Position numbers and translations under genes: made by a program | Shown here: piece by piece, positions 18,101 through 64,000 of the stretch | How the letters are laid out: every line of letters begins with the position of its first letter | Position numbering within the stretch: the first letter of the stretch is position 1 | Origin: Bugula neritina | Lineage: Eukaryota > Animalia > Bryozoa | Direction: 5' to 3' | NCBI GenBank assembly: GCA_964035545.1 | Contig: OZ037767.1 | Location: forward strand, 3,798,707 to 3,862,706 | DNA length: 64,000 nucleotides | Notes under the pieces: model-generated | Database searches by the model: none | What the model was told of the DNA's origin: nothing | What the model saw: the letters and a program-made list of their open reading frames with translations, nothing else

Positions 18101-21100
18101 CCAATCATTCACCCAAACATATAACTGAATGATTGCCACCACCCGGCTGCCGATACAATGCAGCCTCAAAAACAATCCGCAAAAAATAAGAAACAAATAG
18201 TAAAGAGTTATGAGATAAGAAGTTGCATTGCTTGATACTTGATAGCGAATAAAATACTTGATCTTTGGGAATGAGCATCAACCACTGAAGAACTCCACAG
18301 AGATTCTGTTGCTTCATGTGATATCAGCCACCAGATAGAGGAACTACTAGTCTAAGAGGAACAATTCTTCCTAGATACCACCACTTCTCTGGAGCTTTGA
18401 CTACTCTAAAACTACTTGTTTGTAAATTATGCCCCCTCCCTTTCCCAGCACAAAACAAAACCAAATTAAAAATTATATCCGTGAATTTTCTTTATGCAAC
18501 GCTCATTTGTGAAAATATATGTATATGGTTTTCATATGGAATGAACAAGAATAACTTACTTCTTAAGAAGTTGTTTTAGAGACCTAGAATGCCAGAGGCG
18601 AGTTCAAAGTTTTGAGATATTGAGACAGACTACGAGTAGTAGGAACTGTTACATACTTCTGGTGGAGTTTTGTCTGCTCCGGTGGATCTAAAACTACTGA
18701 AATAAAGACTACCCCTATCTGGAAGACCTTACTTTACCACCAAGATTAAAAGTATAAGCCTATCAACAAGAAATATTCTTGGGGAAAACCAAAAAACAAC
18801 CATCACAAAGTGGACTAACTATAAAATCAACTCAATCAATACAGTATAGGTGAATAATATACCACAGAAGTTAACCAATTTGCAACATCAGTTGGGGAGA
18901 GCACCAGGCTTTCAGATAGAACCTTTGGAGAATACTTGTGTAGCCCATCTAATTATCTTTTCGATTTTAGGGAAGTAGAGGCATATCTCTAGAGTATGTA
19001 GTAATTTTCAGCCAGTTACAGAACTCGAGTCGACAATTCGAAAATCAATCTGAAAGAACTGAACTCAACACAAGACGAAATGCATTATGTTCGGCTGCAT
19101 GCAAAATAATCATCAAATTCAACACTGTTATCACAGTAATCGAGTAAATGGCTTTATATGTTATGTTGTATTACCTCAACCTTGAAGTTCTGCGCTTAAA
19201 ATGTTCACAATGCTCTTATTAGAATTATTTTGATGTGTACTTGATTGTCAAGATAAGGCAGTAGAATTTGGAGATGATACAATCGATGTTCGACATAATG
19301 GCAACTTGTTTCCACAGAATACGTATTTCTTCACTGTCACTTGGAAAACGCAATAAGACTACCTCGTATGTAACTAATCTTTCCTGCAACTATTCTGAAG
19401 AAACACCAAATAGTTATGTAGTAATTTTGTGCCCAAGCCATGTGACAGACTGCAGTACAGAGTGTCACACAGCCCCAATCATTCACCCAAACATATAACT
19501 GAATGATTGCCACCACCCAGCTGCCGATACAATGCAGCCTCGAAAACAATCCGTAAAAGAAAAGAAACAAATAGTAAAGAGTTATGAAATAAGAAGTTGC
19601 ATTGCTTGATACTTGATAGCGAATAAAATACTTGATTTTTGGGAACGAGCATCAACCACTGAAGAACTCCGTAGAGATTATGTTGCTTCACGCGATATCA
19701 GCCACCAGATAGAGGAAGAACTAGTCTAAGAGGAACAATTCTTCCTAGATACCACCACTTCTCTGGAGCTGTTGCTTTGACTACTCTAAAACTATTTGTT
19801 TGTAAATTATGCCCCCCTCCCCTTCCCAGCACAAAACAAAACCAAATCAAAAAATTCTACATAGATTTTCTTTGGTACAGACTTGAACTTTATGCACTTG
19901 ATTTTTCATGTAAAATGAAGAACTTACTTCATAAAAAGTTGTTTTAGAGACCTAGATTGCCAGAGGCGAGTTCTAAGTTTCTAAAGGGAAGTTTACTCTT
20001 GCTTCGAGATATTAAGATAAACTACGAGTAGTACGGACTGTTGCATACTTCTGGTGGAGTTTTGTCTGCTTGAGTTGATCTGAAACTACTGAAATAAAGA
20101 CTACCCCTATCTGGAAGACCTTACTTTACCACTATGATTAAAAGTATAAGCCTATCAACAAGAAATATTCTTGGGGAAAACTATAAAATAACCATCACAA
20201 AGTGGACTAACTATAAAATCAACTAAATCAATACAATATAGGTGAATAATATACCACAGAAGTTATCCAATTTGCAACAGCAGTTGGAGAGAGCACCAGG
20301 CTTTCAGATAGAACACTTGGAGAATAATACTTGTGTAGCCCATCCCAATATTTGATCAAATCTAGGGTAAATGCATATCTCTAGAGTTTGTAGAAATCTT
20401 CAGCTAGTTGTAAAACTTCAATTGACAATGTGAAAATCAATCTGAAAGAACTGAACTCAACACAAGACGAAATGTATGTTATGTTCAGCTGCATGCAACA
20501 CTGTTACGACAGCAATCAAATAATTAATGGTTGTAGATGTTATGTTGCATTACCTCAACCTTGAAATGTTTGTGACAAAACTTTCATGATGTTTTTATTG
20601 AAGTTATGGTGCTGTGAGCTGGACTATCAGGATAGAGCTAACAGAATTTAGAGATACAATTGACGTTGGGCGAAATAACAATTTGCTTCAGCAGAATGTT
20701 TGAAGCTTGGGTCACTTGAAAGCCGCAGTATTTCCTGTAACTATTCAGAAGAGAAACCAAATAGTTATGTAATAATTTTGTGCCCAAGCCATGTGACAGA
20801 CTGCAGTACAGAATGTCAACACAGCCCCAATCATTCACCCAAACATGTTACTGAATGATTGCCACCACCCGGCTGTTTACAGCCTCAATAACAATCTATG
20901 AGAAGAGAAACAAATAGTAAAAAGTTACGAGATAAGAAGTTGCATTGCTTGATACTTTATAGCTAATAAAATACTTGATCTTTGGGAACGAGCATCGATC
21001 AGTGAAGAACTCCACAGAGAATCTGTTGCTTCACGTGATACCAGCCACCACCAGACAGAGGAACAACTCTTTTAAGAATAACTTTTCCAGGAGGCCACAA

Positions 21101-24100
21101 TGTGACAGGATTTGCTTTGGATACTCTGAAACTACTTGATTGGAGATAATGCCCCCCCTCTTCCCCCGCACAAATTGCAAAACCAAGTGATTTCAGAATT
21201 TTATAAGTTTTATTTTACATATATTACACTTCTACCTCTGATACACTCGTAGTTTAACTGAAATACACAAAAAGAAGAACTTACTATAAGATAAGTAGTT
21301 TTGGTGGTGTAACATGACAGAATGCAGTGAGTCAAGGTTCTGGAGACACCATCTGTGCCTTGTGGATAATATGATAATCCATTGGAAAACATTTCTCTAA
21401 GCTTCTGTCAACTTGGAAAAATCTGAAACTACTCCACAAAACACACGATGTGTCTACCCCTATTTGGAACTTATGAAAAATCTTAGTATAAGCAATGGAG
21501 TAACTTATTCTTAATAGGCACACAAGAAATCAAAAGATTCAACTGGTAGAATGTGTTACCTCAATAAACTAGGTGAACGAATGTAGTTTTTATGTAGTAC
21601 TACCCCATAGTCGAAACCTGTGTGTGCAGAATTCCCATTTTCATGTTATTGAAGTTTTTGGACGAAGTCATATGTACTGGATTGCTAGTCAGCTACACTA
21701 CATCAAGAGCACTTGCATAAATTGGGATGACATTTCTCCTGTCACTAGTCGTAGCAAAGTCCCAAGACTACTTTCTCCTGTAACTATTCCAAAATGAAAC
21801 CAAATAGTTGTCATAATTTTGTGCCCAAGCCATGTGACAGACTGCAGTACAAAATGTCAACACAGCCCCAATCATTCACCCAAACATATAACTGAATGAT
21901 TGCCACCACCCGGCTGCTGGAATAAACAGCCTCTGGCCAATTGTTCGTTGAACAACTCAAGAAAAGAGCTGAGTAAAATGACTTACATTTAAATTGATTC
22001 ATCATTTGTTTTGTATGTTGTCAGCTGAGAAGAATGCATCAGAAATCATGGTGTAGCTGTGATAATGTAGATCAACCAATGAATAGGAGAGAACGTCATT
22101 GAAAAGAGATTACTTCATAGAACTGTGCTTTGGTTACTCTAAAACTACTTGACCAGAATACTCCCTCCTCATTGCACGATGGCATAAAAAAATTTTCAAC
22201 TATTTTAAGAATTGTCATGTAGTTGCTCACCAATGTGCTGCATACTCGTACATAGTTGGTAATAGAAATGCTCGCCATAAGATATTCAGTTTTCGCATAT
22301 CAAGTAGAACAGTCAACGTAACAGTGTGCTGGCATGTCTTGAAGACAGTAACAGTCGGAACTAGTCGGAACTGCTGAATACTTTCCATAAATTCTTTTTA
22401 CTAGGGTTACCCTGTAACTACTCAACTAAAGACATACCCTACATCTTTTACAACAGTATATTTGTGTGTGGCAGATTACAATGCAAGCTTAATGGTGTGC
22501 TACTATTTTGTAGTGCCCAAGGTTGTATAACTTGTATACTCACTAATTGGATGTGCAGTTGAGACCTTTCTTGAAAAGATGTGAAATCTACATGTATGTG
22601 AAGCTGAATGACGTAGACTGACCTGTGTGTTCAGAAGGCTAGACAATTCTGCTGTTTCAAACCTAAACCTGGCATTTTTAAGTCAAACTCACTAACATCT
22701 CTCGAGGAAAATAAAATGATGATTTTGAAGCGTGCAAGCAATGACAATTGTATGAACAATATACCGCGGTTTCTCCTTTCTGGAATTAGTGATTCACAAT
22801 GTCTTCATCACCAGAGCTCATAGATAGGCACCCATTTCATCCACTGAGTAGGCAACAATTAAGACGTACTTGCAATTTTCAACCAAGAGAAAGTGTGTTC
22901 ATAACTTGGGAGTCAATCTGAAAGAACTGGACTCAACAAAGCGAGGCAAAAGGTTATATGCTCAATTTCAATTGTTGGGAGCAGAATTATTAGTACTGAA
23001 TTACTTTATTAAACGAAATGACTCAACGTAGAACATGCGTTACCCATACTAGGAAGTTTCAGCTGATCGTGCTTACTGCTCTATGCCTTGAGAGGTCGCC
23101 AGTTGCTGGTCTAACACCATACACAAGAAGCCAAAATAATGCATCCAATTGGAAGATGTAGTGCGATCTAATCAGCTTTTCCTGGAACTATTCAGAAGAA
23201 ACACCGAATGGTTATGTAGTAATTTGTGCCCAAGCTGTGTGACAGACTGCAGTACAGAAAGTCAACACAGCCCCAATCATTCACCCAAACATATAACTGA
23301 ATGATTGCCACCACCCGGCTGCCGATACAATGCAGCCTCAATTTTTTTTAGCAATTTCAAGGTATAATGAAAGGAGAGCATGGAAGACTTACGTTTTGTG
23401 AGTATTCAGTTTATAGGCCATCAGTTGAGAGAGACGCATCGGAAATTATCGCATAGTTTTGGAAACATCAATTAACGAGTAGGATCGAAACGCCTCGGAA
23501 ACGAATGATGCTTTAGTTACTCCTAATTCTAAAATTACTGGACTAGCAACATACTCCTTGATAGCAGTATAACTTATGCTCGTACTCAACTTGACTTATA
23601 AATAAAATTAATATGCTGCCCGATTTGCATAAACGTGGTATGGTTTCATGCTCATGAAAACTGGTAAGACTTACACTACGTTGAACAGGTTTTAGGCCAC
23701 AGGATGCACGATGTGAGGATAAATTTTTGTAAGACGTAGACTTGTGCCTGGAGATGGTAGTCCAATGAGAACACTTCAAAAATTTCTTTCTGCTACGATT
23801 ACTCTACAACTACTCAACCAACAAACACGGCAACCTATCTCTTTACGCCACCTTACTTTGTAGTTTTGCTCTTTCATATAATACAAGTTAAATAGTGTTA
23901 ACAGTATTTCTATAAAACTATATACTCACTAATTTGTTGTGTGGGTATAAAACCCTGATCACTTCCATAGTGTCAGAAATCAGAAATTATAGATGCATGT
24001 GAAAATAGGTGGTGTATGCTGTTAGGCCACACTTTTAGATGCTGAACAATTTCTGCTGTATTGTACTTAAACCTAATAAGCTTTATAGTCCAAACATATT

Positions 24101-31948: not shown

Positions 31949-34900
31949 TTACATCAGCAATTCATCATCCATATTAGCTGCGGCCATATATGCATCTAAT
32001 TCATTGTCCAATGAAGACTTGTTAGCTGTATTAGCTCCGCCTCCTCTCCCACCACGTCGAGCGCCACGCCCCCTGCCTCTTACAGCACCTCTCCCACCTC
32101 TACCGGTACCTCTACCCCTACCACCACGCCTGTGTAACAATGAATGGCATTCATCATATAGATATGCACACATATATATACCTATAATATAACTTATTGA
32201 GTACAGTTGTGGACATGCTGCAAGTGGTGCACGGGTTTACCATACTTCACGAAAAACCCTGCAACAGTAGAAAATATTTACCACAGCCTAGTAGAATTCT
32301 ACAAAGCACAACCTCATTTTCTAGGAAACATAAAACCTGCTACATTCATAGGAAGCATGTGCTAGGTGTGAGAATGACATATTGATTTACCCCCTTGAGT
32401 TTTCAAATGTCATAGATTGTTGAAAGCCTTCTCTAGATCCGCCCCTGAATGCTCCTCGCCCGCGACTGACACCTCTTTGGGGCCCCATAGCTGCACCCCT
32501 TCTACCTGAATCAGGAAAATCATGCTGTCAACATTCAATTTCCTAAACTTAGATATAGTCTTAATGAATTTTAGAATTATCACTTACAACAGTTAAAGAT
32601 ATTTACAACAGGTGATAGCATAGTTAATGGGGTTATAAAATGAGAGAGATGTTGATAGCCTTTGCTAGCTAAAGCTGATATGGCGGGCAGTTGGTAGGAC
32701 CCCCTCTCTCTTCTGTCAGAGTGATAAGATACCGTACGCAGATATCGCCAGTAAATTCCTTCTTTAAAACATGACACCAACTAACAGTACGTGCATTTGT
32801 TGTGAAAAATCAACCAACCTCCACGTCCTCTCATAGACACGCCCCTTCCTCTTCTAGTCACTCCCCCTCGACCTCTTGGAATACCTAGTCTCTCTATAAA
32901 AGACACGGGACAAACAAATAGAGAGCTTGGTTATAAAATGTCAAAACATCTTAAGACACTTACTACTACAAGTTGAGGATTGATTGTAATACTAGCTATA
33001 TTATGTTAGATGCTATACTCACTATACTATGTTAGATGCTATACTAAGTTAGATGCTATAATAGGCTAGATGCTATACTACTTTAGATGCTATACTATGT
33101 TAGCTGCTATACTATGTTAGCTGCTATACTAGGTTAGCTACTCTACCTTTCACATCAGATACTGGTGAAGCCAGAGCGGCACCACCGCGAGGACCCCCTC
33201 GCCCTCCCCTGCCTCTGCCACGCAATGTCATGCGGGACCTGAGGGCAGGCCTCCTGCTTGCCGGGGCTCCCCTCCCTCTACCAGAGAAAGATGGCCGTCC
33301 GTCTCCAGCACCACCTCGGCCAGAGGGCTCTGACTTGACCTATTTAGTAGAAAGGAATTCATGTTACATAGTGATAGCCTGTGAGAATATAATTATTCAT
33401 TCTCTTACCTGACTTACTCTATTATGAACACAACTAAACAATGCATTGGTATTGCAAATGGAGTGTACGTATTTAAAATCTAAAATGTTGAAACATCTCC
33501 GAAGTTATCTTCTCGTAAACCATAGCAAACTTAAGCTATAGAACTTCAAGTATTACACAGAATATCACTTAGAAAAGGCAAGTCAATGTCATACCAACTT
33601 TACAAAGTGATATGACAGCGATGTAAGTTTACAGCTGGTAACATTCTACTTAAAATTAGCAGAATAACTTGGCAATTACTAAACACCAGGAAATAAGAAC
33701 CATTAGAAGAGGCGTATTTTACTACTTAGCATAGCATAGTCTATTTCAACAAGAATAATGACATTGTTTCTATAGTTGGTGAGATGTACATTTCTACAAG
33801 AGATTAGTTGATTCCAAGGTGAAGGTCTGAGCCATGGTGCTTTCTTCTGATGTAAAGACAACTCCAAATAATAATCATCTGAATAAATGTAAAGATAATG
33901 CTAGTTGATTAGCTACCAGAGAATGCCGGTTTCTAGCGAGTACAGATAATGACATAATAACCCGTACCTGGGAGGAATTTCCCAATGCTAGCTGCACACT
34001 CGGCCGGTTGGCCATCTGCGCTGCCAGTCTTCTGTTTTTTGCCGAGGCTTGCTGCTGAAGGATCCTCTGTTGCTGACTTTGCTTCTGGCGGGCATCTTGC
34101 TGGGCTGGTGTCGGTTTGGGCAGCTTCTGGAACCTGCGAGTCAAGGTCGTTTAACATGCACACCACGAAACTTAGAAAAGTGAATCCCTATTGGTCAGCT
34201 TACAACAAAACTTAAGATCTTATTGGTCAGCAAACTGCATTAGAGCTGCCAACCTGTTGGGGTGATTAAGGAATACACAGTCCTTATAAAAACACACACT
34301 TATTAGAGTTCATATTCCCATAAAGTTGTGTTTTAATATACATTATTTTTTACTTCAAATCAGCAAATAAATGCCAAGAGAGGCAGTTTTATCTGTATGA
34401 AGACGGTTTTGGAAAGGTGAGGATTTATTTCAGCCATAGAACTTGGCACAATGGTAGCCTCTGCCACACAAGTATTTGCAATAACACGACAGTATTACAG
34501 CAAACAGGGTGAATGGCTACACAATATGATATTCACCCAAAATTCTACACGCTAATAGTTTTGTACCAACTCTTGGTGGTGAAGTCAAATGAGGCCACTC
34601 ATTGGTGCTTGGTGAAAGAATTACAGGTTTTAACGCCAGTCAAATATAGGAGAAAATAACTCCTGCATCTATGATGTAAGCGTGTTTTGCTTGCAATAGA
34701 ACATGGCATACAGCATGTGACCATTTTACCAGAGTAACTGAACTGTATATGTATCAAGTCTTAGGTTCATATCCCAGACAGACCTGTAATGAGTCAGAGC
34801 TGACACCACACTGCAAGTGCTTGTGAGCTCTCAGAGATCAGATAGATGCAAGAGAAAGCAAACTTATAATTATTAGAGAATCGTGAAGCAGGTATGAACC

Positions 34901-35223
34901 AGAAAGCCTCTACTCTATTAGCATACCAGATGCTACGAGTTTGACAAGCTGCTTGGCTTAGCTGCTACGGAAAACAGTAAGTCAGCTGGCAGTTTTCTGC
35001 TTTTGATTGGTGCATTTTTTGGTTATAATGTAACCAACCAATCACAGCTTTGCCTTATAAATCAGGTTATCAATGATGAAATCATTGACCATATTGCTGA
35101 ATACATGTTCCGTATAGGATCAGTGTAGACCTGATCTACAGTTAGCTTGTCACCTCACCTTTCATTCAATGAAATTCTTGAAGTGCCTTCGAGCACTAGC
35201 TTAACAGGCATATTACTTGCCAT
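31949..35223 (-). CDS. CHTOP: Chromatin target of PRMT1 (CHTOP/FOP), RGG-rich mRNA-export cofactor
   Basis: Exons 35223-35159, 34133-33968, 33339-33147, 32893-32819, 32504-32391 and 32129-31949 join in frame. N-terminus MASNMPVKLVLEGTSRISLNERF..QQQASAKNRRLAAQMANRPSVQLAL, central RGG/GAR region, C-terminal UAP56-binding-type motif SLDNELDAYMA. Confidence 0.93.
33000..33140. repeat. 17-bp minisatellite in a CHTOP intron
   Basis: Repeated unit gttag(a/c)tgctatactat, about 7 copies. Confidence 0.8.
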
Positions 35224-37970: not shown

Positions 37971-40900
37971 TTACTCAATTTTAAAAACCCTCACAGTTCC
38001 GTCAGAGCTACACACTGCTAATATATCTCTCTTCACAGCAACACCAATCACATCAGAACATTCTTGAAGTTGCTCATGAGACAAGCGGGACACTATAATT
38101 CCTATTAAAAATATATTGTAGCATATAATTTATATAAATGACAAATCTATGTATTATTTACAGGACAAAGTTATAGATGTTACAATCTCATAATTGAAAA
38201 CCATTTACTATTTTGTTTTAAGAAACAAAATGATTAAACATATTATTTGGCGATTTTTAGCATAATAAAACTTTTCACCATTAAATAACTTCAACGCAGG
38301 TTTAAAAAAGTTTTTATCTTACACTGCTTGAAAATTATAAAAAATAATTCATCAGTATGATGTCTGGCAATTAATTTTTGCAACTAAATCATCACATGGT
38401 AATCTGTGTGAAGTAACTAAAGAGCTATCAGCATAATTAAAGATGTAGTCATTAACTTCAAAGGCTTGTAGTAAACCAGCTTTATTTTTATGCATATCAA
38501 TTGACATTTTCATGATGTATGCTATAATGAGATATGCTGAAAGTTGAATCAATCCAAATAAATTAAATACATACCACTTGAGTCTCTAGCTATGACTTGC
38601 TTGGGGTAACTGAGAATCTGGTAGTTGTATCCAAATGAGTCTTTAGATTTAGAGCAGCATAATATTTTGCAATCAACATTTTGTGTTGTCCTTTGAGCTA
38701 TTTTCTGGGTTACCCCTTTGGTAGATTTACCATTCATTTCAGAAAATCTTTCCTGCAACTGCACCCGTTGAAAAGTATTTTCCGTGCCAGGACTTGATTC
38801 AGCTTTTTTTAAAGCTGGATGATTTTTTTCATTTGTTGGATTGAAAAGTAGCTGGGCAGGTAAGGTGTGTGGCTGTGAAAAAAGATCTGGTCCGAAGTTA
38901 AAAGCCATCGGGTGACAAATATTGTCAGAAGTAGTGCTGTTGGCTATCAGCAGGGAAGACTCGTAACTTGACAAATCTGGTCTCCATACTTTTACAGCAA
39001 AAGAGTTTCCTTTCATATGAACTAAGTATTTGGCTGACAAGATTTCTGTTACTGGATACTTTGCAATGGTAGAACTACACAGGCTGTAAACATACAGCTG
39101 CTTTTGACCAGACACAAGAAAAGCGACATATGTTTCAAAAACTACAACTGAAGCATCGGCAATAGGATTTGAATCTATCTGCAGCAACTCTTGCTTTACC
39201 CGTAAGCTAACAGTTGAATGCAGGTACAGAAAAATCTTCTTTTCTACTCGCTGCAGGCTTACAAGCCCATCACAGGTTACCAGGGGTGCAATGTCAAGCA
39301 GATGACCAGTAGCCTTGTCTGTTCCCAAATGATTTAGCTTTGAGTCGTAAATATGCATTTGGTCATGCACAGTTGTAAGTACTAGGTTATCGTTGAAAGT
39401 CCACATCATAGATTTTATATCTTTAATCAACACTTTTTTCAGAACGAGCTCCAAGTTCTCTGGCTTGAATGGCTCTATGGCAAAATGTGGTGTATCTAGA
39501 AACAGATGAGTGTAATACATATAGGCTATTATATGCAATGACTCACATACTAATTGAAATTTATGACAGTTTAATGGATGTCAGAGTCAGAATTTCACAG
39601 AAATAGTTCACAATGGTTTGGAAAAAATCGTCTGATAGGTGAATTATCGTTATAGCAGTAAGTTATATTGCAAGAGTTATCGTAGCAATCCAAGTGGATA
39701 TAAAGATGATAAACAGTCATGATTTATCTGATAATCTTTCTAGTACCTTATTCACTTAAAACAATACCTAAGATTAACTGTTCAAAATACCTGAAATATC
39801 ATGGAAACATGTTTATAGCTGGTCAAGGCATGACTGGAAGATCGATACTACATCAGTATTACTTAGAAATGAATGCAAATTTTTAACTTTATAGCAAGAA
39901 TATAGAGATCTTGAATATTCAATGCTAGCGAAATCAATTCAAACTTGAGCTAACAACATTTTTTATTGCTGCCCAAATAAATAGTTACTAACATGAACGG
40001 CACTGTATGCTTGTATTTTCAAGCGCCATATATTTGATGTTTTTCTGTAGGGCTGCTTCTACATCTCCTTTTTGTTCATGCAGTGTTCTAATGATATCTG
40101 GAAGACTACTTTCCTCGCTACATTGAGTCAGAACTTGTTCCAAAGTCTTTAGATTCACCATTTGTGATTCTATCTTCAGTGAGTGGCTAGCAGCTTTCTC
40201 CGAGTGGTCAGTCACTTTGGCAATGAGTTGCTGCTTGAATTCCTCTGCCTTCGTAATCATCTTTTTGTACTTTAAACATACACCAGCAGATTTTCAACAA
40301 ATTGGCTGAAAGATTATTTGTTAAAAACAAAACATAGAAATGACAAAGTGACAAAAACCATATTGCCAAGTGAATTAGTTTTTCCGGATATCCTATAAGA
40401 TATAGCTTTAAAGCAGTCGGAAATCAAGATTGTGAAAGAATTATTTGTTTCTCTTTTGAAAATTAAAGAAAAATATGTAACAATAAGTTTTATTTCTTTC
40501 AAGCAAAAATGATCTTTTTAGTTCATTTATACAAACTATGCAAATATAAATTTTGCATTTAATTTTTTTATATGCATGCGCAGTCAATGTAAGTTGTAAA
40601 TCTAAAAACTAAATATTAATTTATACCTCCTTTTCTACAAAATCATCTACTTTGCCTGTCAGTTTTGTAATGTGTCGTTCATTTTCTTCTACCAATTGCC
40701 AAGCCTGTTTCTCACTTCTGCAAACTTCAGTTTGTTTTACAGCCAGCTCTGACAGTTGATTGTTGAGCATTTGTCTGCAGTGATTCTCAAAATTTTTGAG
40801 AGGAACTGTTTTGTGTGACTGAGAAAATCTCACTGCAAATATAACCAATGTGGCAACACCATTAATATATGTTTTAGATTAAAAATTGCAACATTAAGGC

Positions 40901-43900
40901 ATACGTTTTGCTATATTAGGGTTGTACATTGGGTGGTTAAGATAGTGTGCTTGCGTGTGTTTGTAATTTATCACTAGTCGATATATAATTTCTAACTTGA
41001 CTATAACAAATTGGTTTACTCTTTTATATAACAATGTTTTTCATCTCTTTAAATGATAGTCTTTTTTCCACATTAACACAATATTACGTGTTTCTAAAAA
41101 TGTGTGTGTCAAAATTGGCTTCAGAAAAAATTAAGAACACTAACCTGCATTTGTGCTTTGTTTGACCAGCTTTTTAGTTGATTCATAGGAAGGTTTATGA
41201 GAGTAACATGAAGATACATAGGGCTTCTTAGGTGTCATTTTAAAGTCTAAACTTTTGCCCAGATTATTGACAAGGAAGCCCACAGCACTATCTGATCTAA
41301 AACTACCTGTAGTTGAAATGGTCACATTATTTACAGCTTTTGAAGTGTTTTTAAGGTGTCATCCCAAATAGACGCTTCCCAGTTAGACGATAGGCTAAAT
41401 TTCCCTTTTCGACGTTTCCCAGTTAGACGTTATTTATTTATATTTAAATATATATGTATATCTAAATAAAGCACATATTGAGCACATAAATGAACCTTTT
41501 TGATCTGCATTAACTTATTAATTTTACATATATTTTGCTTCTTGTTTAAACAGATACTTTGTTAATGAGTATTGACTAATTCAAGATAATGTTTATTATT
41601 AATATATTACGTTTTTTGTCCCACACAAATTTATGAGAATTAAAACATTATTCCAGATAATTCATGTTGGCTATTATAGCTATTAGCATTTTAGCAATGA
41701 ATGCAACAGTTATATAGGTATATTACTATAAAATTATATGGCACCAAAATAGAAAATAGCGTCTAAACTGGGAATCGTTTAAGTGGGATGAAACCGTTTT
41801 TAAGACTGAAGACTTTTTTAAAAACAGATCTACGCATAGTTTTTCTCAGTGCTGCAAAGTATGCTATTTACTGCTGCTGAAAAGTTAAACTCACAGCTGC
41901 AATGTTATAATTGCTATTTTTATGAAGCTTAGCAACATTTTAGTTTGTTTTACCTGTTTCTTTGTCTTTTTCTCCAAAATTGAATTTGTTCCAATTTGAT
42001 TTGGGAAATAGCTGTGGATGTTTATTATAGTCTTCCATTCTCAATTCCTAAAAACATTATATGTGTATTTTGTTACAGTTTAAAAGGTCAAAACGTAGCA
42101 CAGAGCAAAGTAATTTTATTTACTATTAGTTGCTAAATATAACATTTCCTAAAAAAACACTGGTTTACGTCTTAGATTAAACTGAGGAAGTTGCTCACAT
42201 ATAACTATTCAATGCAGTAAATTAATTGAGTTAATATTTAAACAAATTAAACGAATAACTAGTAACATAAGTAAAGTTTAATATACTTTGAAAACACTAG
42301 TAGATTATCAGTCATTACCAAAAACTGCCTCGGTCTTAAACTAAGCTCACAATTTTAAATAATAATTCGTTGTGCAGTATTGTTTAAACTTTAAACTCTA
42401 CTATAGACTGTTTTTGATAATTCTATAACTCACTTCCAAACTATAGGCTCCATAACTTTTCATTCCAGTGATGCAGTAATGCTTTGTTTTCACTGTAGTA
42501 GCAAGGCCATTTTTCATCATATTATCTTGGCCATCTGTTGGAACAAAACTAGTTTTGTAAGTGTCTGGTGGTGCAGAGTCAGATGAAAACTGGGTGGCAC
42601 TGAGAGCTTGAAAACCTGTTTTAGATGTGGATAGCTCTGATCCCCAGTTATTAGTAACATAACTTGTTGATGGTTTTGCTGGTTCTGTAGTGGCTCCAAA
42701 GCTGAAACCAGTTGCTGGTTCTGTAGTGGCTCCAAAGCTAAAACCAGTTGTTGGTTCTGTAGTGGTTCCAAAGCTGAGGCCAGTTGTTGCTCTTGTAGTG
42801 GCTCCAAAATTGACACCAGTTGCTGGTTCTGTAGTGGTTCCAAAGCTAAAACCAGTTGCTGGTTCTGTAGTGGCTCCAAATCTGAGACCAGTTGCTGCTC
42901 TTGTAGTGGCTCCAAAGCTGAAACCAGTTGCTGGTTCTGTAGTGGCTCCAAATCTGAGGCCAGTTGCTGCTCTTGTAGTGGCTCCAAAGCTGACACCAGT
43001 TGTTGGTTCTGTAGTGGTTCCAAAGCTAAAACCAGTTGCTGGTTCTGTAGTGGCTCCAAAGCTGAGGTCAGTTGCTGCTCTTGTAGAGGCTCCAAAGTTG
43101 AAAACAGTTGCCGGTTCTGTAGCGGTTCCAAAGCTGAGGCCAGTTGTTGCTCTTGCAGTGGCTCCAAAACTGAAACCAGTTGCTGGTTCTGTAGTGGCTC
43201 CAAAGTTGAGGCCAGTTGTTGCTCTTGCAGTGGCTCCAAAGCTGAAACCAGTTGCTGCTCTTGTATTGGCTCCAAGGCTGAAACCGGTCTCTGCTTTTGT
43301 AGTGGTTCCAAGGCTGACACTAGTTGCTGCCCCTGTAATGGCTTCAAAGCTGAAAGGCCCTAATGGCTTACCAAATGGTTGACTTGCATTAACCACAGAT
43401 GAGCTGGAAGCACTTTTTGATCCAAAAATATTTGTAGCAGAAGTGGTTGAAATTTTTCCAGCTTCTGAAGATGTGGCTCCAAAAATAGAATTTGTTGTTA
43501 CTGGCTTACCAAATGTTTGACTTGCAGTAACCAGAGACGAGCTGAGAGAACTTTTTGATCCAATGATATTTGTAGTAGAATTGATTGTTTTTTTAGCTTC
43601 TTTGGTCAACAATGTATCATACAAGTTAGCTGTTGGGTTAAACAAGTTTTTGTCTAATAGCTTATTAGATGATTCAAAAGAATTTAATAAATCAGTTGGT
43701 TTTGCAACAAAAGGAATTTCGATTGAAGTGGAGCTGGACAATTTTTCAGCAAATTTATGTGGCACTAAATTAGAGTTTCCTGTATCTGCAGCTTTCTCCT
43801 GCAATAGAAATTGAGATATATGAATGAAATAGTGAAGCCTGCACCTTACTTTTAGCTGAATGTTCCGTTCATTAAAATGGGCCTTTTCAGACACCTACAG

Positions 43901-45988
43901 AGTTGAAAAATCTTGAAAAAATAATTATACTATTTTGTAGTAAAATCTTTATGCACAAACTTGTTTGATTACAAGGATACTTACTATACTTTCTGAAGAG
44001 TCTGGGTTGTTTGTCTCACATGCCAATTTAGTTGTGTTTTCTTTGTCTTCAGCAGATGTATCACCTTAACAATAGCAACATCACATAATTCGCATAGAAA
44101 AGGTACACAAATGGCATCTTAGATTATCATAAGCATGCGATACACTTTATTGATATGTACATTCCAATTCTCAACTTTTGTCTGCACAGTTTTGCTTCAA
44201 TCAATGTATAAACTATCAAGACTAAATTACCATGTATTACCATATTTCATGGGTTATTAAATATACAGCTGTGTTGAGATACTTGAGTAGATTAGACCAC
44301 AAGCTAAGCTCAATGTTACACTCTTAATATTGATTAAAGATTACTATTTGACCAAGAGTTGTATGTATGCCAAACTTTATACTATCAACTAAATTATGAT
44401 CTCATAGCTTTAATTGAAAGTATATAACTATCTTGGTAATAATGTTTAACTTTAACAAACTAGAGGAAGAATATAGCAAACTTGTTGTAAGCTTGATTTA
44501 GAACTAAATATATATGGAAAACATGGAGTTGCTGATAAACTATGTAAAAAAGAGCTGTTTCACTCTTTGGTATTCAGCTATCAACATTATGCTGCTTAGA
44601 ATTATCACCGACTCGCAACCGAAGCAAAATAATGCTAGAGCTTGTAGCATTATTGTAATATTCATACACATCGAGAGACACTTTCAACATTACAACTTTC
44701 TAAGCGTGGCAACTGCTGTCTTTTATTAGTAAAGCAAATGAGTGCTTTCTAAATACCGTTGTGCGAAAGGGTCATTCTCATGCATGCCTTTAGCATGTTT
44801 TGATGGGCATACAGGTAAGTAATGAGGAAAAAACCAATACCCGAAGTTTATTATTATCCTTACAAATAAATTGATTTAGGGTGCAAGTTGACCTAGGATG
44901 CAACTTCACCATGTAGGACACAGGCTTTTTTAATTTCTCCATTACTCCATCTAGTTTACAAAAAGTTACACGTACATGTGCATAACCCAGTAATTAGCAG
45001 AAAATATCCCACTCACTTTCAGACACCCATCTACCAGTGCAGATGGTGTTGAGGTCACAGGACTGGCAGAAGAGTCTGTAGCAGAACTCACACCCTCTGG
45101 TTACGTTTTCATCCTCATGTTCAAAGCATTTTATCTTTCTGTATTTGGCTTTAGATTGAGCATATTTCATTATGGAAATCTTATCATGCTCCAAATCAAA
45201 GACTCTGTCATGATTCTAGAAGAAATATTTCGAAGGATACATCATCCAAGCATAAATTTGTCAACTGAGAAAAAAGATTTAAAGCTTGCAAATAATAGAG
45301 ATAATGCATCAGCTCGAATTTGTCAAACTTTTCAATGTATGACGTATACACAAGCCAAACTCAAGGACAGAGGACAATTGATTTCCTTACCTCTTCATGA
45401 CTTTTACAGAAAGCTCTCTCGCAGTGTAAACAGAAACTATGTGCCAATTCAGCTGGTTCTGTCTTGCAAGAATCACAGTAAATGAGCTCGTGGTCAGGTT
45501 CAGATGGAGCATACTCCTTTTTTATTGGGTTCAACTCCAAGTAGGTGCATGTTTTTCTAAAAATTTTATAACATGTAAGAAATTTACTAAAGTATATATA
45601 CATATAATATACACACATATACACACATATGTGTGTATATGTGCGGTGAATGTATATAATTATAATGCTTAATAGTGCATCACTAAAAAGAGCTCAATGC
45701 AGGGCAGAGCACAGTGAAAAAAAATTTAGAGGATATGATAAAATTAGACTAAAACATTTTATCACTAGTAGCTTCATGTGTACATGTAATCATGCTGGAT
45801 ATGTATATAAGTGTAAATAGTTATACGAACTGGCAGACTATGCAGGTGATAGTTTCTCCGCTGTTACTCCCATGCATGCAGGGTAAACAGAATCTGTGAG
45901 AGCAGGGAAGCTGTCTTGGCTGGTCAACATCTATCAGCCTTTCCAAACAATATCCACATCTTTCATCTTCTGCTTTGCCCTTATCCAT
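37971..45988 (-). CDS. TRIM protein copy 1: RING, B-box1, B-box2, [FG repeats + Nup98-type GLEBS], coiled coil, beta-propeller-like domain
   Basis: Exons: 45988-45831 (C3HC4 RING CGYC..LPCSHRFCLPC..CIVC), 45556-45391 (B-box1), 45215-45017 (B-box2), 44064-43985, 43798-42434 (FG repeats and GLEBS N-half), 42047-41954 (ELRMEDY), 41306-41145, 40832-40627 and 40269-39993 (coiled coil), 39495-38575, 38101-37971 (LAVCSSDGTVRVFKIE*, WD40/NHL-like last blade). Phases are consistent throughout. Confidence 0.85.
41355..41795. mobile_element. MITE inserted in a TRIM copy 1 intron
   Basis: Imperfect ~35-bp TIRs (ggtgtcatcccaaatagacgcttcccagttagacg / cgtctaaactgggaatcgtttaagtgggatgaaacc), 8-bp TSD gtttttaa, and absent from the homologous intron of copy 3 (~60280). 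Confidence 0.8.
42670..43360 (-). repeat. Coding 36-bp tandem repeat (12-aa ATGFSFGATTEP/RA unit, ~19 copies)
   Basis: Seen in ORF 42401..43894; 16 of the 19 units retain FG. Confidence 0.95.
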
Positions 45989-47654: not shown

Positions 47655-54890
<7,236 letters not shown>

Positions 54891-56563: not shown

Positions 56564-59500
56564 TTACTCAATTTTAAAAACCCTCACAGTTCCGTCAGAG
56601 CTGCACACTGCTAATATATCTCTCTTTACAGCAACACCAATCACATCAGAACATTCTTGAAGTTGCTCATGAGACAAACGGGACACTAGGGTTCCTATTA
56701 AAAATATATTGTAGCATATAATTTATATAAATGACAAATCTATGTATTATTTACAGGACAAAGTTATAGATGTTACGATCTCATAATTGAAAACCGTTTA
56801 CTATTTTTGTTTTAAGAAACAAAATGATTAAACATATTGTTTGGCGTTTTTTAGCATAATAAAACTTTTCACCATTAAATTACTTCAACGCAGGTTTAAA
56901 AAAGTTTTTATCTTACACTGCTTGAAAATTATTAAAAAAAGTAATTCATCAGTATGATGTCTGGCAATTAATTTTTGCAACTAAGTCATCACATGGTAAT
57001 CTGTGTGAAGTAACTAAGGAGCTATCAGCATAATTAAAGATGTAGTCATCAACTTCAAAGCCTTGTAGTAAACCAGCTTTATTTTTATGCATATCAATTG
57101 ACATTTTCATGATGTATGCTATAATGAGATATGCTGGAAGTTGAATCAATCCAAATAAATTAAATACATACCACTTGAGTCTCTAACTACGACTTGCTTG
57201 GAGTAGCTGAAAATCTGGTAAATGTATCCAAATGAGTCTTTAGATTTAGAGCAGCATGATATTTTGCAATCAACTTTTGTTGTTGTCCTTTGAGCTATTT
57301 CCTGGGTTACCCCTTTTGCAGATTCACCATTCACTTCAAGATATTTTTGTAGTAACTGCAATGATTGAAAAGTATTTTCCCTGCCATGACTTGATTCATT
57401 TCTTTTCAAAGCTTTTTCATTCGTTGGATCGAAACGTAGCTGTGCAGACGAGCTGTCTGACTGTATTGAAAAAGGATCTGGTCCAAAGTTAAAAGCCATC
57501 GTGTGACAAATATTGTCAGAAGTAGTGCTATTGGCTATCAGCAGGAAAGACTCGTAACTTGACAAATCTGGCTTCCAAACTTTTACAGCAAAAGAGTTTC
57601 CTTTCATATGAAGCAAGAATTTAGCCGACAAGACTTCTGCTACTGGATACTTTGCAATGGTGGAACTACACAGGCTGTAAACATACAACTGCTTTTGACC
57701 AGACACAAGAAAAGCGACATATGTTTCAAAAACCACCACTGAAGCATCGGCAATAGGATCTGACTCTATCTGCAGCAACTCCTGCTTTACCTGTAAACTA
57801 ACAGTTGAATGCAGATATAGGAAAATCTTATTTTCTACTCGCTGCAGGCTTACAAGCCCATCACGAGTGACCAGGGGTGCAATGTCAAGAAGATGGCCAG
57901 TGGCCTTGTCTGTTCCCAAGTGATTCAACTGTGAGTCCATGATATGTATTTTGTCATGTACAGTCGTGAGTACTAGATTATCGTTGAAAGTCCACATCAT
58001 AGATTTTATATCTTTAATCAACACTTTTTTTAGAACGAGCTCCAAGTTCTCTGGCTTGAATGGCTTTATGGCAAAATGTGGTGTATCTAGAAACAGATGA
58101 GTGTAACATATAGGCTATTATATGCAATGACTCACATACTAATTGAAATTGTAAAACAGTTTAATGGATGTCAGAGTCAGAATATCACAGGTCGAAATAG
58201 TTCAGAATGGTTTGGAAAAAATATATCAGTCTGATAGGTGAATTATCGTTATAGCACTAAGTTATATTGCAAGAGTTATCGTAGCAATCCAAGTGGATAT
58301 AAAAATGATAAACAGTCATGATTTATCTGATAATCTTTCTAGTACATTATCCACCTAAAACAATACCTAGGATTAACTGTTCAAAATACCAGAAATATTA
58401 TGGAAACATGTTTATAGCTGGTCAAGGCATGACTGGAAAATCGATACTACATCAGTATTACTTAGAAATGGTTGCAAATTTTTAACTTTATAGCAAGAAT
58501 ATAGAGATCTTGAATATTCAATGCTATTATAACGAAGTCATTTCAAACTTGAGCTAACAACATTTTTTAATGTCCAAATAAATTGTTACTAACATGCGTG
58601 ACATTGTATGCTTGTACTTTCCAGCTCCATACACTTAATATTTTTCTGTAGGGCTGCTTCAACATCTCCTTTTTGTTCATGCAGTGTTCTAATGATATCT
58701 GGAAGACTACTTTCCTCGCTACATTGAGTCAGAACTTGTTCCAAAGTCTTTAGATTCACCATTTGTGATTCTATCTTTAGCGTGTGGTTAGCAGCTTTCT
58801 CCGAGTGATCAACCACTTTGGCAATGAGTTGTTGCTTGAACTCCTCTGCTTTCATAGTCATCTTTTTGTACTTTAAACATACATCATTAAACTTTCAACA
58901 AATTTGCCAAAGGATTATTTACGAAAACATAAAATTTAAAAATAATAGGTTGCAAAAACCAAACTGCAATAGCTTGAAAGCCCTCTAAAATCAACATTGT
59001 GATTAAAAAATTATTTACGTCATTTTGAAAAAATCTATTATTGAACTTTTCATCCTTTTGTGACAAAATGGTATCTTTAGTTCATTTATAAAAATTAAGC
59101 AAAAATAAATTTTGCATTTGGTTTTTACATGTGTAGCTTATGTGACCTGCGTTGTAAGTCTAAAACTAAAAGCCAGCTACCTCCTTTTCTACGAAATCAT
59201 CTACTTTGCCTGTCAGTTTTGTAATGTGTCGTTCATTTTCTTCTACCAATTGCCAAGCCTGCTTCTCACTTCTGCAAACTTCAGTTTGTTTTATAGCCAG
59301 CTCTGACACTTGATTGCTGAGCATTTGTCTGCAGTGACTTTCAAAATCTTTAAGAGGAACTGTTTTGTGGGACTGAGGAAATATCTCTGCAAATATCCAT
59401 GTGGCAACACCTTTAATATATGACTTAAATTAGAAGTTGTATTGTTGGCATACTTATTGCTATATTTGGGCTGTGGATTGGGCGGTTAAGACAGTTAGCC

Positions 59501-62500
59501 ATAGTTAAAAAGAACTTAATAGTAATCATAGAAGGTACATTAATTTTGGTTTAGGAAGGAGTGTAAACTCAAGCAAGATGAGCTCAAGCTTTGCAACTGG
59601 CATAGCCTTAAGGCTTGAATCTACATATGCCTTTTAAATTTATATTAATGGAAAAATGGTTCTTTTTTCATGTACAGGTATGTGAGGATTTTACAGTCTT
59701 TTGTTTTTCGCTAGTGGAATAAGGGCGGAACCTGCAATAACAGCTGTTTACAAATTGCAACTTTTGAATTTTCATCATTTATTGTTACTCTGAAGATGAG
59801 AACAGCAGTGCCAAAAATATTAGTCAATTACTTTGTTTAATAAAGTAATAAAACTAAAATGTTACTCGTATACTTATCCATAAAAAAAATATATATATAT
59901 ATGTATGTATATATTTCTAAATTAAGAATAACAAATTGGTTCGCCCTCCAACAAAATTTTATTTGTTTCCTTCAATGATAACTTTTCTCTTACTTTTACA
60001 CAATAGTGTTTTTTTTCCAGAAATTTTTTGTCAAACTTGGTTTTAGAGAGAATTTAGAACACTAACCTGCACCTGCGTTTTGGTTGACCATCTTATTAGG
60101 TGATTCATAGGAAGGTTTATGAGAGTAACATGAAGATACATAAGGCTTCTTAGGTTTCCCTCTGAAGCCCAAACCTTTGCCAGGACGATCTAATTGGCCT
60201 GGATTATTGGCGAGGAAGCCCATAGCATTATCTGTTCTAGAAATACCTGTAACCAAGCTGGTGACATTATTTACAGCTTTTGAAGTAATTTTATAACTAA
60301 AAATTTTTCGAAAATACAGATTGATGCATAATTTTTCTCAGTGCTGTAAATTTACCTACTGTTGCTGAAAAGTTGAAGTAACACCTGCAATGCTATAATT
60401 GCTGTTTTCATGAAGCTTAGCAATATTTATCGTTCTAAAATTATTAAAATTTCTTTTACCTGCATCTTTGTTTTTCTCTCCAAAATTAAACTTGTTCCAA
60501 TTTGATTTGGGAAATAGCAGTGAATGTTTATTATAGTCTTCCATTCTTAATTCCTAAAAGTATCATTTGCAGATTGTTTACAGTTCAAAAGGTTAAAAGG
60601 TAGCTCAGACCGAAGTAATATTTGCTAGTATTTCCATAAAAAACATTTGCTTTCTAAGGAAGTTACTTACATGCAACTATACTGCAAGTGTTGAAAATAC
60701 AATGAATGAATAATTATGGCATTGCGTTTTTATTAAAAAACATCACAACTCTAAGTCAATAAGTTTTCTCACAGTTTAACTTGCTTTTCGTACCCCAGTG
60801 CCTGGTGGTGCAGAGTCAGATAAAAACTGGCTGGTACTGAGAGCTTGAAAACCTGTTTTAGATGTGGATAGCGCTGATCCCCAGCTATTAGTAACATAAC
60901 TTGTTGATGGTTTTGCTGGTTCTGTAGTGGCTCCAAAGCTGAAACCAGTTGCTGGTTCTGTAGTGGCTCCAAAGCTGAGGCCAGTTGCTGCTCTTGTAGA
61001 GGCTCCAAAGTTGAAAACAGTTGCCGGTTCTGTAGCGGTTCCAAAGCTGAGGCCAGTTGTTGCTCTTGCAGTGGCTCCAAAGATGGAAGTTGTTGTTACT
61101 GGCTTACCAAATGGTTGACTTGCAGTAACCACAGACAAGCCGAAAGCACTTTTTGGTCCAAAGATATTTGTAGTGGAATTGGTTGAAGTTTTTACAGTTT
61201 CTGAAGGTGTGGCTCCAAAGATGGAAGTTGTTGTTACTGGCTTACCAAATGGTTGACTTGCAGTAACCACAGACGAGCCAAAAGCACTTTTTGATCCAAA
61301 GATATTTGTAGTGGAATTGGTTGAAGAATCAGATAAAGTAGTGGATTTTGCAATGAAAGGAACTTCAATTAAAGTGGAGCTGGACAATTTTTCAGCAGAT
61401 TTATATGGCACTAAATTAAAATTTACTGGATCTTCAATTCTGTCCTGCCATAAAAATTAAGATATATGCATAAAATAGCAAAACTTGCACCTTACTTTTA
61501 GCTGAATGTTCATGAAAATGGGTTTTTTCAGAAACTTACAAAGTTTAAAAACCTTGAAAAAATAGTTACTATTTTGTAGTAAAATCTTTATGCATAAACT
61601 TGTTTGATTAAAAAGATACTTACTATACTTTCTGAAGAGTCTGGGTTGTTTGTCTCGCATGCCAATTTAATTTTGTTTTCTTTGTTTTCAGCAGATGTAT
61701 CACCTTGACAACAGCAATATCATAAATTATATGTAGAAAAAGGTACACAAATGACATATTAGATTATCATTAGCGCAATGCACTTTAATGATATGTACAT
61801 TTCAATTTTTAAGTTTTGTCTGTACAACACTTGCACAGTTAAACTTCAATCTTGGAATTAATAAACACACACTTGCATTATAAATTTACAACTATTAAGA
61901 CTAGATTACCTGATATTTATTAAAGATTACTGTTTGATAAGGAGTTATGTGATAAAGATTTATTTGATACTTAGGAGTCATTTTACTTCATTTAGTACAC
62001 ATCAGCAAATTATGACCTAAGATTAAAGTTTGCTCAAAATTCATTGAAATTTACTATATTGTGTGGTATTTTTATGTGCTGGTTCTAATTATGCATAACA
62101 AAAAAAGCTGGGAGGGGCTTCCCCAACATTAAAGCACCGTCATTGTCATATGCACTTAATATATAAGTGCGATTGTCATGAAAAAACCGCGATGGTCTAC
62201 AAATATCTAAATTAGCTAAATAATTAGGAAAAACATGAGAAATTAGGCAAAATTAAAATTAAAATTGATTATATAGTTGTATTTATTGATATCAATAATA
62301 TGCTATTAGTTTTGGGTAAAAACCCATATAAATTAGCAGCTAAATTGGGAAAAATACCAAAGACTGGAGATTTCGAGTGTGTACTAAATTAAGTAAAATA
62401 ATCGTATGCCAAACCTTTTACTACCAACTATATTATGATTTATCTTACATAGCAGCTTTATTTGAAAGTGCATAACTATCTTGGTAATAATGTTCAGCTC

Positions 62501-64000
62501 CAATAAACTACAGGAAGAATATAATGTATACTTAAAATATAAACAGATACGGAAACCATGGAGCTGCTGATCAATTACACAGAAAAAAAGGCTGTTTTGC
62601 TCTTTGGTGTTCAGCTATTAACAGTATGTAGCTTGGATTTATCATCTATGACTTAAGCTAGAGTGTACCAAACTTGAAAGAACGCTATTATAGTATGCAC
62701 TGACCTTTTTTGTAACATTCCTACACATTGAGAAACTCTTTAAACATTACAATTTTCTAAGCATGGCAACTGCTATTTCTTCATTAGTAAAGCAAATGAG
62801 TGGCTCGGCAAACATGATAGTGCAAGAGGGTTATTTCTATGCATGCCCATAGCATGTTTTTCTAGGCATACAGGTAAGTAATGAGGAAAAAATCAATAGG
62901 CGAAGCTGTTTATTATTTTTACGAATAAATTGATTTGGGGTGCAAGTTGACCTAGGATTCAACCTCACCATGTAGGACACAGGCTTTTTCAATTTCTCCA
63001 TTACTGCATCTACTTTAACAAAAAGTTACACATTGTGCATGTGCATAACCCAGTAATTAGTAGGAAATATCCCACTCACTTTCAGGTACCCATCTACCAG
63101 TACAGATGGTGTTGAGGTCACAGTACTGGCAGAAGAGTCTGTAGCAGAACTCACACCCTCTGGTTACGTTTTCATTCTCATGTTCAAAGCATTTGATCTT
63201 TCTGTATTTGGCTTTAGATTGAGCATATTTCATTATGGAAATCTTATCATGCTCCAAATCAAAGACTCTGTCATGATTCTAGAAGAAATATTTCGAAGGA
63301 TACATCATCCAAGCATAAATTTGTCAATTGAGAAAAAAGATTTAAAGCTTGCAAATAATAGAGATAAGGCATCAGCTCGAATTTGTCAAACTTTTCAATG
63401 TATGACGTATACACAAGCCAAACTCAAGAACAGAGGACAATTGATTTCCTTACCTCTTCATGACTTTTACAGAAAGCTCTCTCGCAGTGTAAACAGAAAC
63501 TATGTGCCAATTCAGCTGGTTCTGTCTTGCAAGAATCACAGTAAATGAGCTCGTGGTCAGGTTCAGATGGAGCATACTCCTTTTTTATTGGGTTCAACTC
63601 CAAGTAGGTGCATGTTTTTCTAAAAATTTTATAACACGTAAGAAATTTACTAAAGTATATATACATATAATATACACACATATACACACATATGTGTGTA
63701 TATGTGCGGTGAATGTATATAATTATAATGCTTAATAGTGCATCACTAAAAAGAGCTCAATGCAGGGCAGAGCACAGTGAAAAAAAATTTAGAGGATATG
63801 ATAAAATTAGACTAAAACATTTTATCACTAGTAGCTTCATGTGTACATGTAATCATGCTGGATATGTATATAAGTGTAAATAGTTATACGAACTGGCAAA
63901 CAGTGCAGGTGATAGTTTCTCCGCTGTTACTCCCATGCATGCAGGGTAAACAGAATCTGTGAGAGCAAGGAAGCTGTCTTGGCTGGTCAACATCTATCAG
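56564..64000 (-). CDS. TRIM protein copy 3 (5' end beyond the right edge; short FG region, GLEBS N-half deleted)
   Basis: Exons >64000-63894 (RING, partial), 63619-63454, 63278-63080, 61703-61624, 61444-60794 (donor GGG|GTACGA is inferred), 60553-60460 (ELRMEDY), 60246-60067, 59386-59181, 58870-58594, 58086-57172 and 56694-56564. Confidence 0.8.
61980..62399. mobile_element. MITE-like insertion in a TRIM copy 3 intron
   Basis: ~21-bp TIRs (attttacttcatttagtacac / gtgtactaaattaagtaaaat); absent from the homologous introns of copies 1 and 2. TSD not clear. Confidence 0.65.

Follow-up and report, generated by a model that had tools for sequence, protein, structure and literature searches.

Gene organization of the locus

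The window analysed here is a stretch of 64,000 nucleotides of animal DNA from the bryozoan Bugula neritina (assembly GCA_964035545.1, contig OZ037767.1, positions 3,798,707 to 3,862,706). It contains a TRIM-type gene with an internal block of four exons, hereafter the cassette, which carries phenylalanine-glycine (FG) motifs and a GLEBS motif of the Nup98 type and appears to separate zinc ligands of the second B-box. The gene is present as three head-to-tail copies on the minus strand, which we call C, B and A. Copy C (45988-37971, 11 exons) carries the complete arrangement and was used for the description below. Copy B lies at 47655..54890 with its cassette at 52328-51317 (834 nucleotides in two exons), and copy A at 56564..64000, its 5' end lying beyond the window, with a cassette at 61703-60067 (1005 nucleotides).

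The layout of the gene is RING, B-box1, B-box2, helical region and C-terminal domain, which is the TRIM-type or RBCC order, and the intron phases of the 11-exon model of copy C are 2,0,1,0,0,1,1,0,1,1. Exon 1 (45831..45988, ending in phase 2) holds the start codon and a RING finger, which matches Pfam zf-C3HC4 with 26.8 bits at a cut-off of 21. Exon 2 (45391..45556, phases 2/0) carries ligands 1-6 of B-box1, and exon 3 (45035..45215, phases 0/1) carries the last two His of B-box1 followed by ligands 1-7 of B-box2. All eight ligands of B-box1 precede B-box2 and follow the pattern C-x2-C-x11-C-x2-C-x4-C-x2-H-x3-H-x7-H; the spacing fits the type-1 consensus quoted in PMC5533445, and the Pfam matches to B-box1 stay below the cut-off.

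The cassette comprises exon 4 (43985..44064, phases 1/0), which is found in all three copies, exon 5 (42434..43798, 455 codons, phases 0/0), exon 6 (41954..42047, phases 0/1) and exon 7 (41145..41306, phases 1/1). Exon 8 (40627..40832, phases 1/0) encodes the B-box2 tail with its His (codon 40815-40813) and the start of a putative coiled coil, the remainder of which is encoded by exon 9 (39993..40269, phases 0/1). Only weak Pfam matches were obtained for exons 8 and 9, which continue directly after the B-box2 His.

Exon 10 (38575..39495) encodes a C-terminal beta-rich domain that is weakly propeller-like, and exon 11 (37971..38101) ends with the stop codon and has a weak WD40 match (E 0.036). 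The Pfam scan of exon 10 gave no match. Its look-alikes in the ESM Atlas are propellers; these matches are weak, and the predicted model is of low confidence, with a predicted local distance difference test score (pLDDT) of 34. No longer protein was found using exon 10 as query, and a B. neritina protein (P0006) is 85% identical to it. A metagenome scan returned a single chance bacterial match (L001). The gene is described as a RING-Bbox1-Bbox2-coiled-coil gene of TRIM type, with predicted E3 ligase activity.

The Nup98-type cassette

The GLEBS motif of copy C matches the Pfam family Nup98_GLEBS (PF21240) with an E-value of 6.6e-11 and 42.5 bits over a cut-off of 27, covering positions 2-32 of 39, and matches the human Nup98 GLEBS peptide in the PDB with an E-value of 1.3e-7. 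Its exon-5 part (42434..42556, minus strand) continues over a phase-0 intron into exon 6, which opens with ELRMEDY. We take these to be the last seven residues of GLEBS; exon 6 alone matches neither Pfam nor the PDB. Upstream of GLEBS, exon 5 encodes a Ser/Thr-rich disordered region and an array at 42690..43320 of 18 repeats with an exact spacing of 12 residues, nearly all ending in FG or LG. Altogether, the cassette of copy C contains 21 FG motifs, and Ser, Thr, Ala and Gly make up 49.5% of it; the Pfam family Nucleoporin_FG matches exon 5 below the cut-off (E 1.5e-5). Exon 7 alone gave no match in the PDB or other databases searched, and a CxxH motif within it is kept in all three copies.

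The cassette was likely copied from Nup98 genomic DNA and not retroposed, because it holds three introns, one of them inside GLEBS. Human NUP98 presumably has a matching intron boundary, which the literature searches did not confirm. We hold the TRIM anatomy and this origin of the cassette to be very probable.

Intron 6 of copy C contains an element resembling a miniature inverted-repeat transposable element (MITE) at 41355-41795, with terminal inverted repeats of 30 nucleotides that are 83% identical. Its depth in run X2, summed over contigs, is ~17000 against ~200 nearby. Run X2 covers the cassette as contiguous DNA at ~99% identity, and may be the source sample.

Position of the cassette in B-box2

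The B-box2 ligands in exon 3 read C-x2-H-x8-C-x2-C-x4-C-x2-C-x5-C. This gives seven ligands, the seventh being a Cys (codon 45041-45039) in place of the usual His. Pfam zf-B_box covers exon 3 only over profile positions 3-31 of 42 and below the curated cut-off (E 0.0055), and a family profile searched against the PDB matched the B-box2 structures of TRIM28, TRIM63 and MID1 (best E 1.6e-5). According to PMC5533445, site I of the TRIM21 B-box2 consists of ligands 1, 2, 5 and 6 and site II of ligands 3, 4, 7 and 8, and this B-box2 can fold with site I alone. Since ligands 1-7 lie in exon 3 and ligand 8 in exon 8, the insert follows a complete site I and a site II that is still one ligand short. 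The site I ligands are invariant in all 19 aligned rows.

A contiguous B-box2 ends in H-x2-4-[CH]. Here, the last His follows 574 residues after Cys7 when the cassette is included, and 7 or 13 residues after it when the cassette is skipped, so that the skipped form restores C-x7-H; the corresponding pattern in the relative P0021, described below, is probably C-x6-H. Using a motif built from the B-box1 tails of relatives, the window around the exon-8 His ranks 1 of 1068 in copy C, 1 of 779 in copy B and 2 of 834 in copy A. These results support, at the level of sequence comparison, a cassette that splits zinc site II of B-box2 between ligand 7 and the last His. The original prediction had B-box2 divided by the cassette between its Cys ligands and its last His. 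The separation of ligand 7, which is a Cys, from the last His stands, but the division is confined to site II, all ligands of site I being encoded by exon 3.

Structure prediction was applied to the same region. The model of exon 3 alone had a pLDDT of 68, and a fold search with it gave no significant match (best Z 3.1; MID1 B-box2 at E 3.4). A likeness of this model to C1 domains was discarded as an artefact, since it uses His residues belonging to B-box1. A two-chain prediction of the exon-3 core and the exon-8 tail with zinc scored 0.02 and was counted as evidence neither way.

Comparison with relatives

A HMMER search with exon 3 gave 13 matches, of which 11 were kept as real relatives; the other two (P0013 and P0014) are repeat proteins and were dropped. 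Most of the relatives are gene calls made in prokaryote style, in which translation continues from an exon into the intron behind it. Watersipora subatra XP_067944533.1 (P0008), the closest named relative, and P0009-P0012 and P0015-P0032 share with the present gene the exon of B-box1 tail and B-box2, with Cys as seventh ligand. FG motifs and GLEBS, both present in our gene, are absent from the examined sequences of these relatives; most of these are single-exon fragments, whose genes may still carry a cassette beyond the part covered.

The most informative relative is P0021, a cluster mate of P0011, which matches exon 3 with an E-value of 8e-14. In P0021, B-box2 is followed by 49 intron-like residues and then by a 68-residue block of exon-8 length, so that the His exon is reached after 49 residues, where our gene reaches it after the cassette. 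At the predicted offset, the block aligns to exon 8 with no gap, its His and Trp standing opposite those of exon 8. The score of 35 compares with a shuffle mean of -51 and is the best of 167 offsets; it was reached by none of 5000 fixed-register shuffles and none of 1000 best-offset shuffles. MAFFT independently aligned the His of P0021 with the exon-8 His, and the junction residues of P0021 are compatible with a phase-1 GT-AG intron.

Nine of the 11 relatives have Gly two residues after Cys7, followed in all nine by E, K, M, N or S. We regard this as a donor signature, because read-through of a phase-1 GT(A/G) donor encodes these residues. The cassette thus likely entered a pre-existing phase-1 intron, given that P0021 has the same flanking blocks without the cassette and that 9 of 11 relatives show the signature. 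A phase-1 intron at this position, which the original prediction had proposed to look for in outgroup TRIMs, is indicated in these relatives by their protein sequences.

Exon phases and transcript evidence

Two GT donors are candidates for the end of exon 3. They follow 45035 and 45017, 18 nucleotides apart, and both are in phase 1 and present in all three tandem copies. A local donor matrix built from 12 donors did not separate them (6.0 vs 5.4). Only the relatives favour one of them, the donor after 45035, as the probable older site. A Cys reached by read-through of the second donor was tried as ligand 8 and ruled out, as only copy C has that Cys.

Exon 3 ends in phase 1 and exon 8 begins in phase 1 on the minus strand, at the coordinates first proposed for them, and exons 4-7 (1701 nucleotides, or 567 codons) can be removed in frame with either donor, also as proposed. 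No stop was found in any of 12 splice forms (three copies, two donors, cassette included or skipped). However, any in-frame insertion into a phase-1 intron must give this 1-1 symmetry, and 16 of the 45 contiguous exon blocks of the copy C gene are symmetric, which is not beyond chance. Being obligatory for an in-frame insertion and common in the gene, the symmetry is no evidence of a splicing switch.

Contigs of run X1, probably RNA, join exactly as modelled at 40832-41145 (exons 7 and 8), 40269-40627 (exons 8 and 9) and 45556-45831 (exons 1 and 2). The joint 43798-43987 (exons 4 and 5) has an offset of 2 nucleotides from the model, and a further joint, 39495-40001, involves exon 9. In total, five modelled introns are joined in X1, four of them in the joint table and the fifth in the table of letters between joints. 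The joints of exons 4-5 and 7-8 are inclusion joints, the latter with 113 letters on the short side. Among the 15 of 43 X1 joints listed, there is none skipping from exon 3 to exon 8 and likewise none from exon 3 to exon 4, and contigs drop rare forms. Joint depths (~145-178 in the cassette, 416-442 in the flanks) were not used as expression levels, as contigs give no levels and paralogues are summed in them. Inclusion of the cassette is probably the main form. That every copy has kept the His tail would fit skipping, and would also fit a tail that docks back over the loop.

One high-depth X1 contig, at 40868-41374, reads through intron 7 without splicing, and the donor region of exon 7 is missing from it; it may be a paralogue, a retained-intron form or DNA.

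Variation among the copies

The cassette differs between the copies. In copy B, exon 5 runs in frame straight into the last part of exon 7, with no GLEBS and 3 FG motifs. In copy A, the N-part of GLEBS is gone and exon 6 is kept, with 13 FG motifs and an apparent new exon-5 donor after 60794. The annotated B. neritina protein P0007 has the same exon-5 ends as copy C, matched end to end, together with the N-part of GLEBS above the Pfam cut-off, and an FG repeat of a different type is expanded in it. An X1 contig that joins across the whole 12-residue FG array (42707-43502) represents a paralogue without the array, as in P0007.

In the non-repeat pieces of the cassette exons, all four indels are multiples of three, against 11 of 37 in introns (the pairs compared share copy C). 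The ratio of nonsynonymous to synonymous substitution rates (dN/dS), computed pairwise and from small counts, is 0.57 (C-B, 172 codons) and 0.91 (C-A, 154 codons) in the cassette; on the same basis, it is 0.21-0.36 in the coiled coil and C-terminus and 0.21-0.53 in the B-box exons. Between copies C and B, dS is 0.36 in the cassette vs 0.07-0.17 elsewhere. As judged from these comparisons, the reading frame of the cassette appears to be selected, and its residues weakly.

Two further observations concern the B-box region. Exon 2 is identical and exon 3 is 98% identical between copies A and C (63619-63098 vs 45556-45035), while later exons are 85-95% identical, which suggests gene conversion in this region. 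In copy B, a 5' piece of exon 2 is duplicated with its acceptor at 54443-54488 and is a possible pseudo-exon.

Proposed function and alternative explanations

The best overall reading, to which we give somewhat better than an even chance, is a TRIM ligase with an included, disordered, Nup98-derived bait loop inside B-box2. A piece of Nup98 would have been copied at the DNA level into the old phase-1 intron between ligands 7 and 8, and the long form would be translated as the normal form. B-box2 would hold one zinc firmly at site I, with site II lost or remodelled, its His lying at a distance of 574 residues. In the included form, a conserved Asp at the second position behind Cys7 could take the place of the His as site II ligand. 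A disordered loop of 280-570 residues would project between the end of the RING and B-box region and the coiled coil. GLEBS would bind Rae1, the FG motifs would capture transport receptors or nucleoporin-docking viral proteins, and the RING would ubiquitinate the captured proteins.

Several points weigh against this reading. Copies A and B have lost GLEBS by different deletions with their frames kept, which leaves two of the three copies without it, and the dN/dS of the cassette could be that of either a tolerated passenger or a fast-changing bait. The identification of X1 as RNA is a guess, and its contigs are ~90% identical to copy C. With regard to the empty site, the introns of P0021 and the other relatives are deduced from read-through gene calls, BLASTP alone did not detect the match between P0021 and exon 8, and two of the 11 relatives, P0011 and P0019, do not have the read-through signature. 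The annotated end of Watersipora XP_067944533.1 lies 16 residues after Cys7, with no His; this early end may reflect intron read-through or a truncated model. Finally, with a Cys as ligand 7 and a spacing of 7 (or 13) residues from it to the His, where the published consensus has 2-4, even the skipped form would be a variant B-box2.

Two alternatives concern the zinc finger itself. Exons 4-7 might be skipped in part of the messenger RNA, so that a conventional TRIM with an undivided B-box2 would be made alongside the bait form. Such a switch would be served by a skipped span of only 3.2-4.2 kb, by skipping that keeps the frame in every copy, whichever donor is used, and brings the His to a distance near that of P0021, and by the retention of the His and the tail motif in each copy. 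Against this, the X1 joints listed include only inclusion joints, a weak argument with the exon 3-4 joint also missing, and the symmetry of the block carries no weight for the reason given above; we consider the switch possible, though on the unlikely side. Alternatively, B-box2 could be completed upstream of the insert or barely within it. Site II would then be formed by Cys3, Cys4, Cys7 and a local residue, for which the Asp at +2, a Cys conserved in exon 4 and the exon-7 CxxH are candidates, and the His of exon 8 would be vestigial. When the cassette is included and the first donor used, each of the three copies has the Asp at +2 from Cys7, which is the consensus spacing, and the Watersipora model ends without the His. 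But the His is aligned in P0021, a cassette-free relative with only 19% identity, and the Asp is encoded by exon 4 and so comes from the cassette, which implies repair after a split rather than absence of a split. A complete B-box2 is in our judgement rather improbable.

As to what the bait loop would do, an antiviral decoy role is ranked ahead of the other functions considered, because of the tandem expansion and fast turnover; it remains tentative, with somewhat less than an even chance on the sequences compared. The matrix protein (M) of vesicular stomatitis virus, coronavirus ORF6 and herpesvirus ORF10 bind Rae1-GLEBS, as given in PMC10454920 and PMC12666860. An engineered fusion of TRIM5 with the FG part of NUP153 restricts human immunodeficiency virus type 1 (PMC3795039). 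The cassette may instead be a tolerated passenger, a Nup98 piece that arrived by a recent accident in a redundant, expanding family, of which the frame alone is selected while the cassette decays. The two independent losses of GLEBS, the cassette dN/dS, the repeats that vary in type and number among the copies and P0007, and the transposon-like insertion in intron 6 are what such decay would produce. Yet GLEBS is intact in copy C and its N-part is found at a second B. neritina locus (P0007), some FG exons are kept in every copy, and FG arrays expanded separately; we think a passenger unlikely, if less so than a complete B-box2. Least probable of the functions is a housekeeping nuclear-pore ligase, which would use GLEBS and the FG motifs to bring its RING to Rae1 or the pore and would control mRNA export or mitosis independently of any virus. 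According to PMC2133102, over-expression of the Nup98 GLEBS withdraws Rae1 from the pore by titration and stops poly(A) export, so a ligase bearing GLEBS could regulate Rae1. The tandem expansion, the mosaic divergence between cassette and flanks in C-B and the repeated loss of GLEBS are, however, atypical of a housekeeping gene.

The decoy role can be extended to a Bugula family of natural TRIM-nucleoporin decoy ligases. FG motifs and GLEBS inside B-box2 would catch viral proteins that target Rae1 or dock on the pore, for ubiquitination; paralogues would come to differ in their baits through deletions and expanded repeats, and a single splicing choice would toggle between an intact and a bait-bearing, broken zinc finger. 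In this full form, the proposal is speculative and probably wrong in some part.

Comparison with known systems

The two-B-box TRIM or RBCC proteins TRIM28, MID1/TRIM18 and TRIM63 have the same domain order as the present gene, and their B-box2 ligands 1-6 align with it. Unlike them, our gene has Cys as ligand 7, and ligand 8 lies in another exon and, with the cassette included, 574 residues further on. Its tripartite motif extends over many exons, whereas that of TRIMs frequently occupies a single one (PMC2533329). With the N-terminal region of Nup98, the cassette has in common a GLEBS above the Pfam cut-off, FG-repeat flanks and the richness in Ser, Thr, Ala and Gly. In contrast to Nup98, the autoproteolytic or other Nup98 domains were not found in the scanned exons, and the FG units are gene-specific 12-residue repeats embedded in a ligase.

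TRIMCyp arose by retroposition, and its captured, intronless module replaces the C-terminal domain. In the present gene, the module is internal, has three introns, splits B-box2 and leaves the C-terminal exons in place. Both TRIMCyp and the fusion Trim-NUP153C (the latter in PMC3795039) join, like our gene, a TRIM effector to a host segment bound by viruses. In Trim-NUP153C, the captured part also replaces the C-terminal domain, and the antiviral activity known for that fusion is only presumed for the gene described here. The gene would function in the manner of a TRIM domain capture, yet has neither the arrangement of TRIMCyp nor the contiguous B-box2 of TRIMs.

A TRIM gene with an internal Nup98 GLEBS/FG block was not described in the literature searched, which did not extend to subscription papers and supplements (supplements of genome papers could list it), and no paper on bryozoan antiviral genes was found in the same literature. 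The locus is a clear example of a zinc finger interrupted by exon shuffling, and a relative still displays the unoccupied ancestral site. It also couples a TRIM ligase with a Nup98 motif attacked by several unrelated viruses. If the bait reading is true, it would be a natural counterpart of engineered TRIM-nucleoporin restriction factors and would show how a TRIM can acquire a new specificity without giving up its C-terminal domain.

Other features of the window

Exons of a forkhead gene, which we take to be FoxN2/3-like, lie at ~150-4600 on the minus strand. At ~16700-22000, there are several near-identical units ~1.37 kb apart, visible as repeated open reading frames. An RGG-rich gene at ~31950-35220, also on the minus strand, presumably resembles Chtop/FoP.

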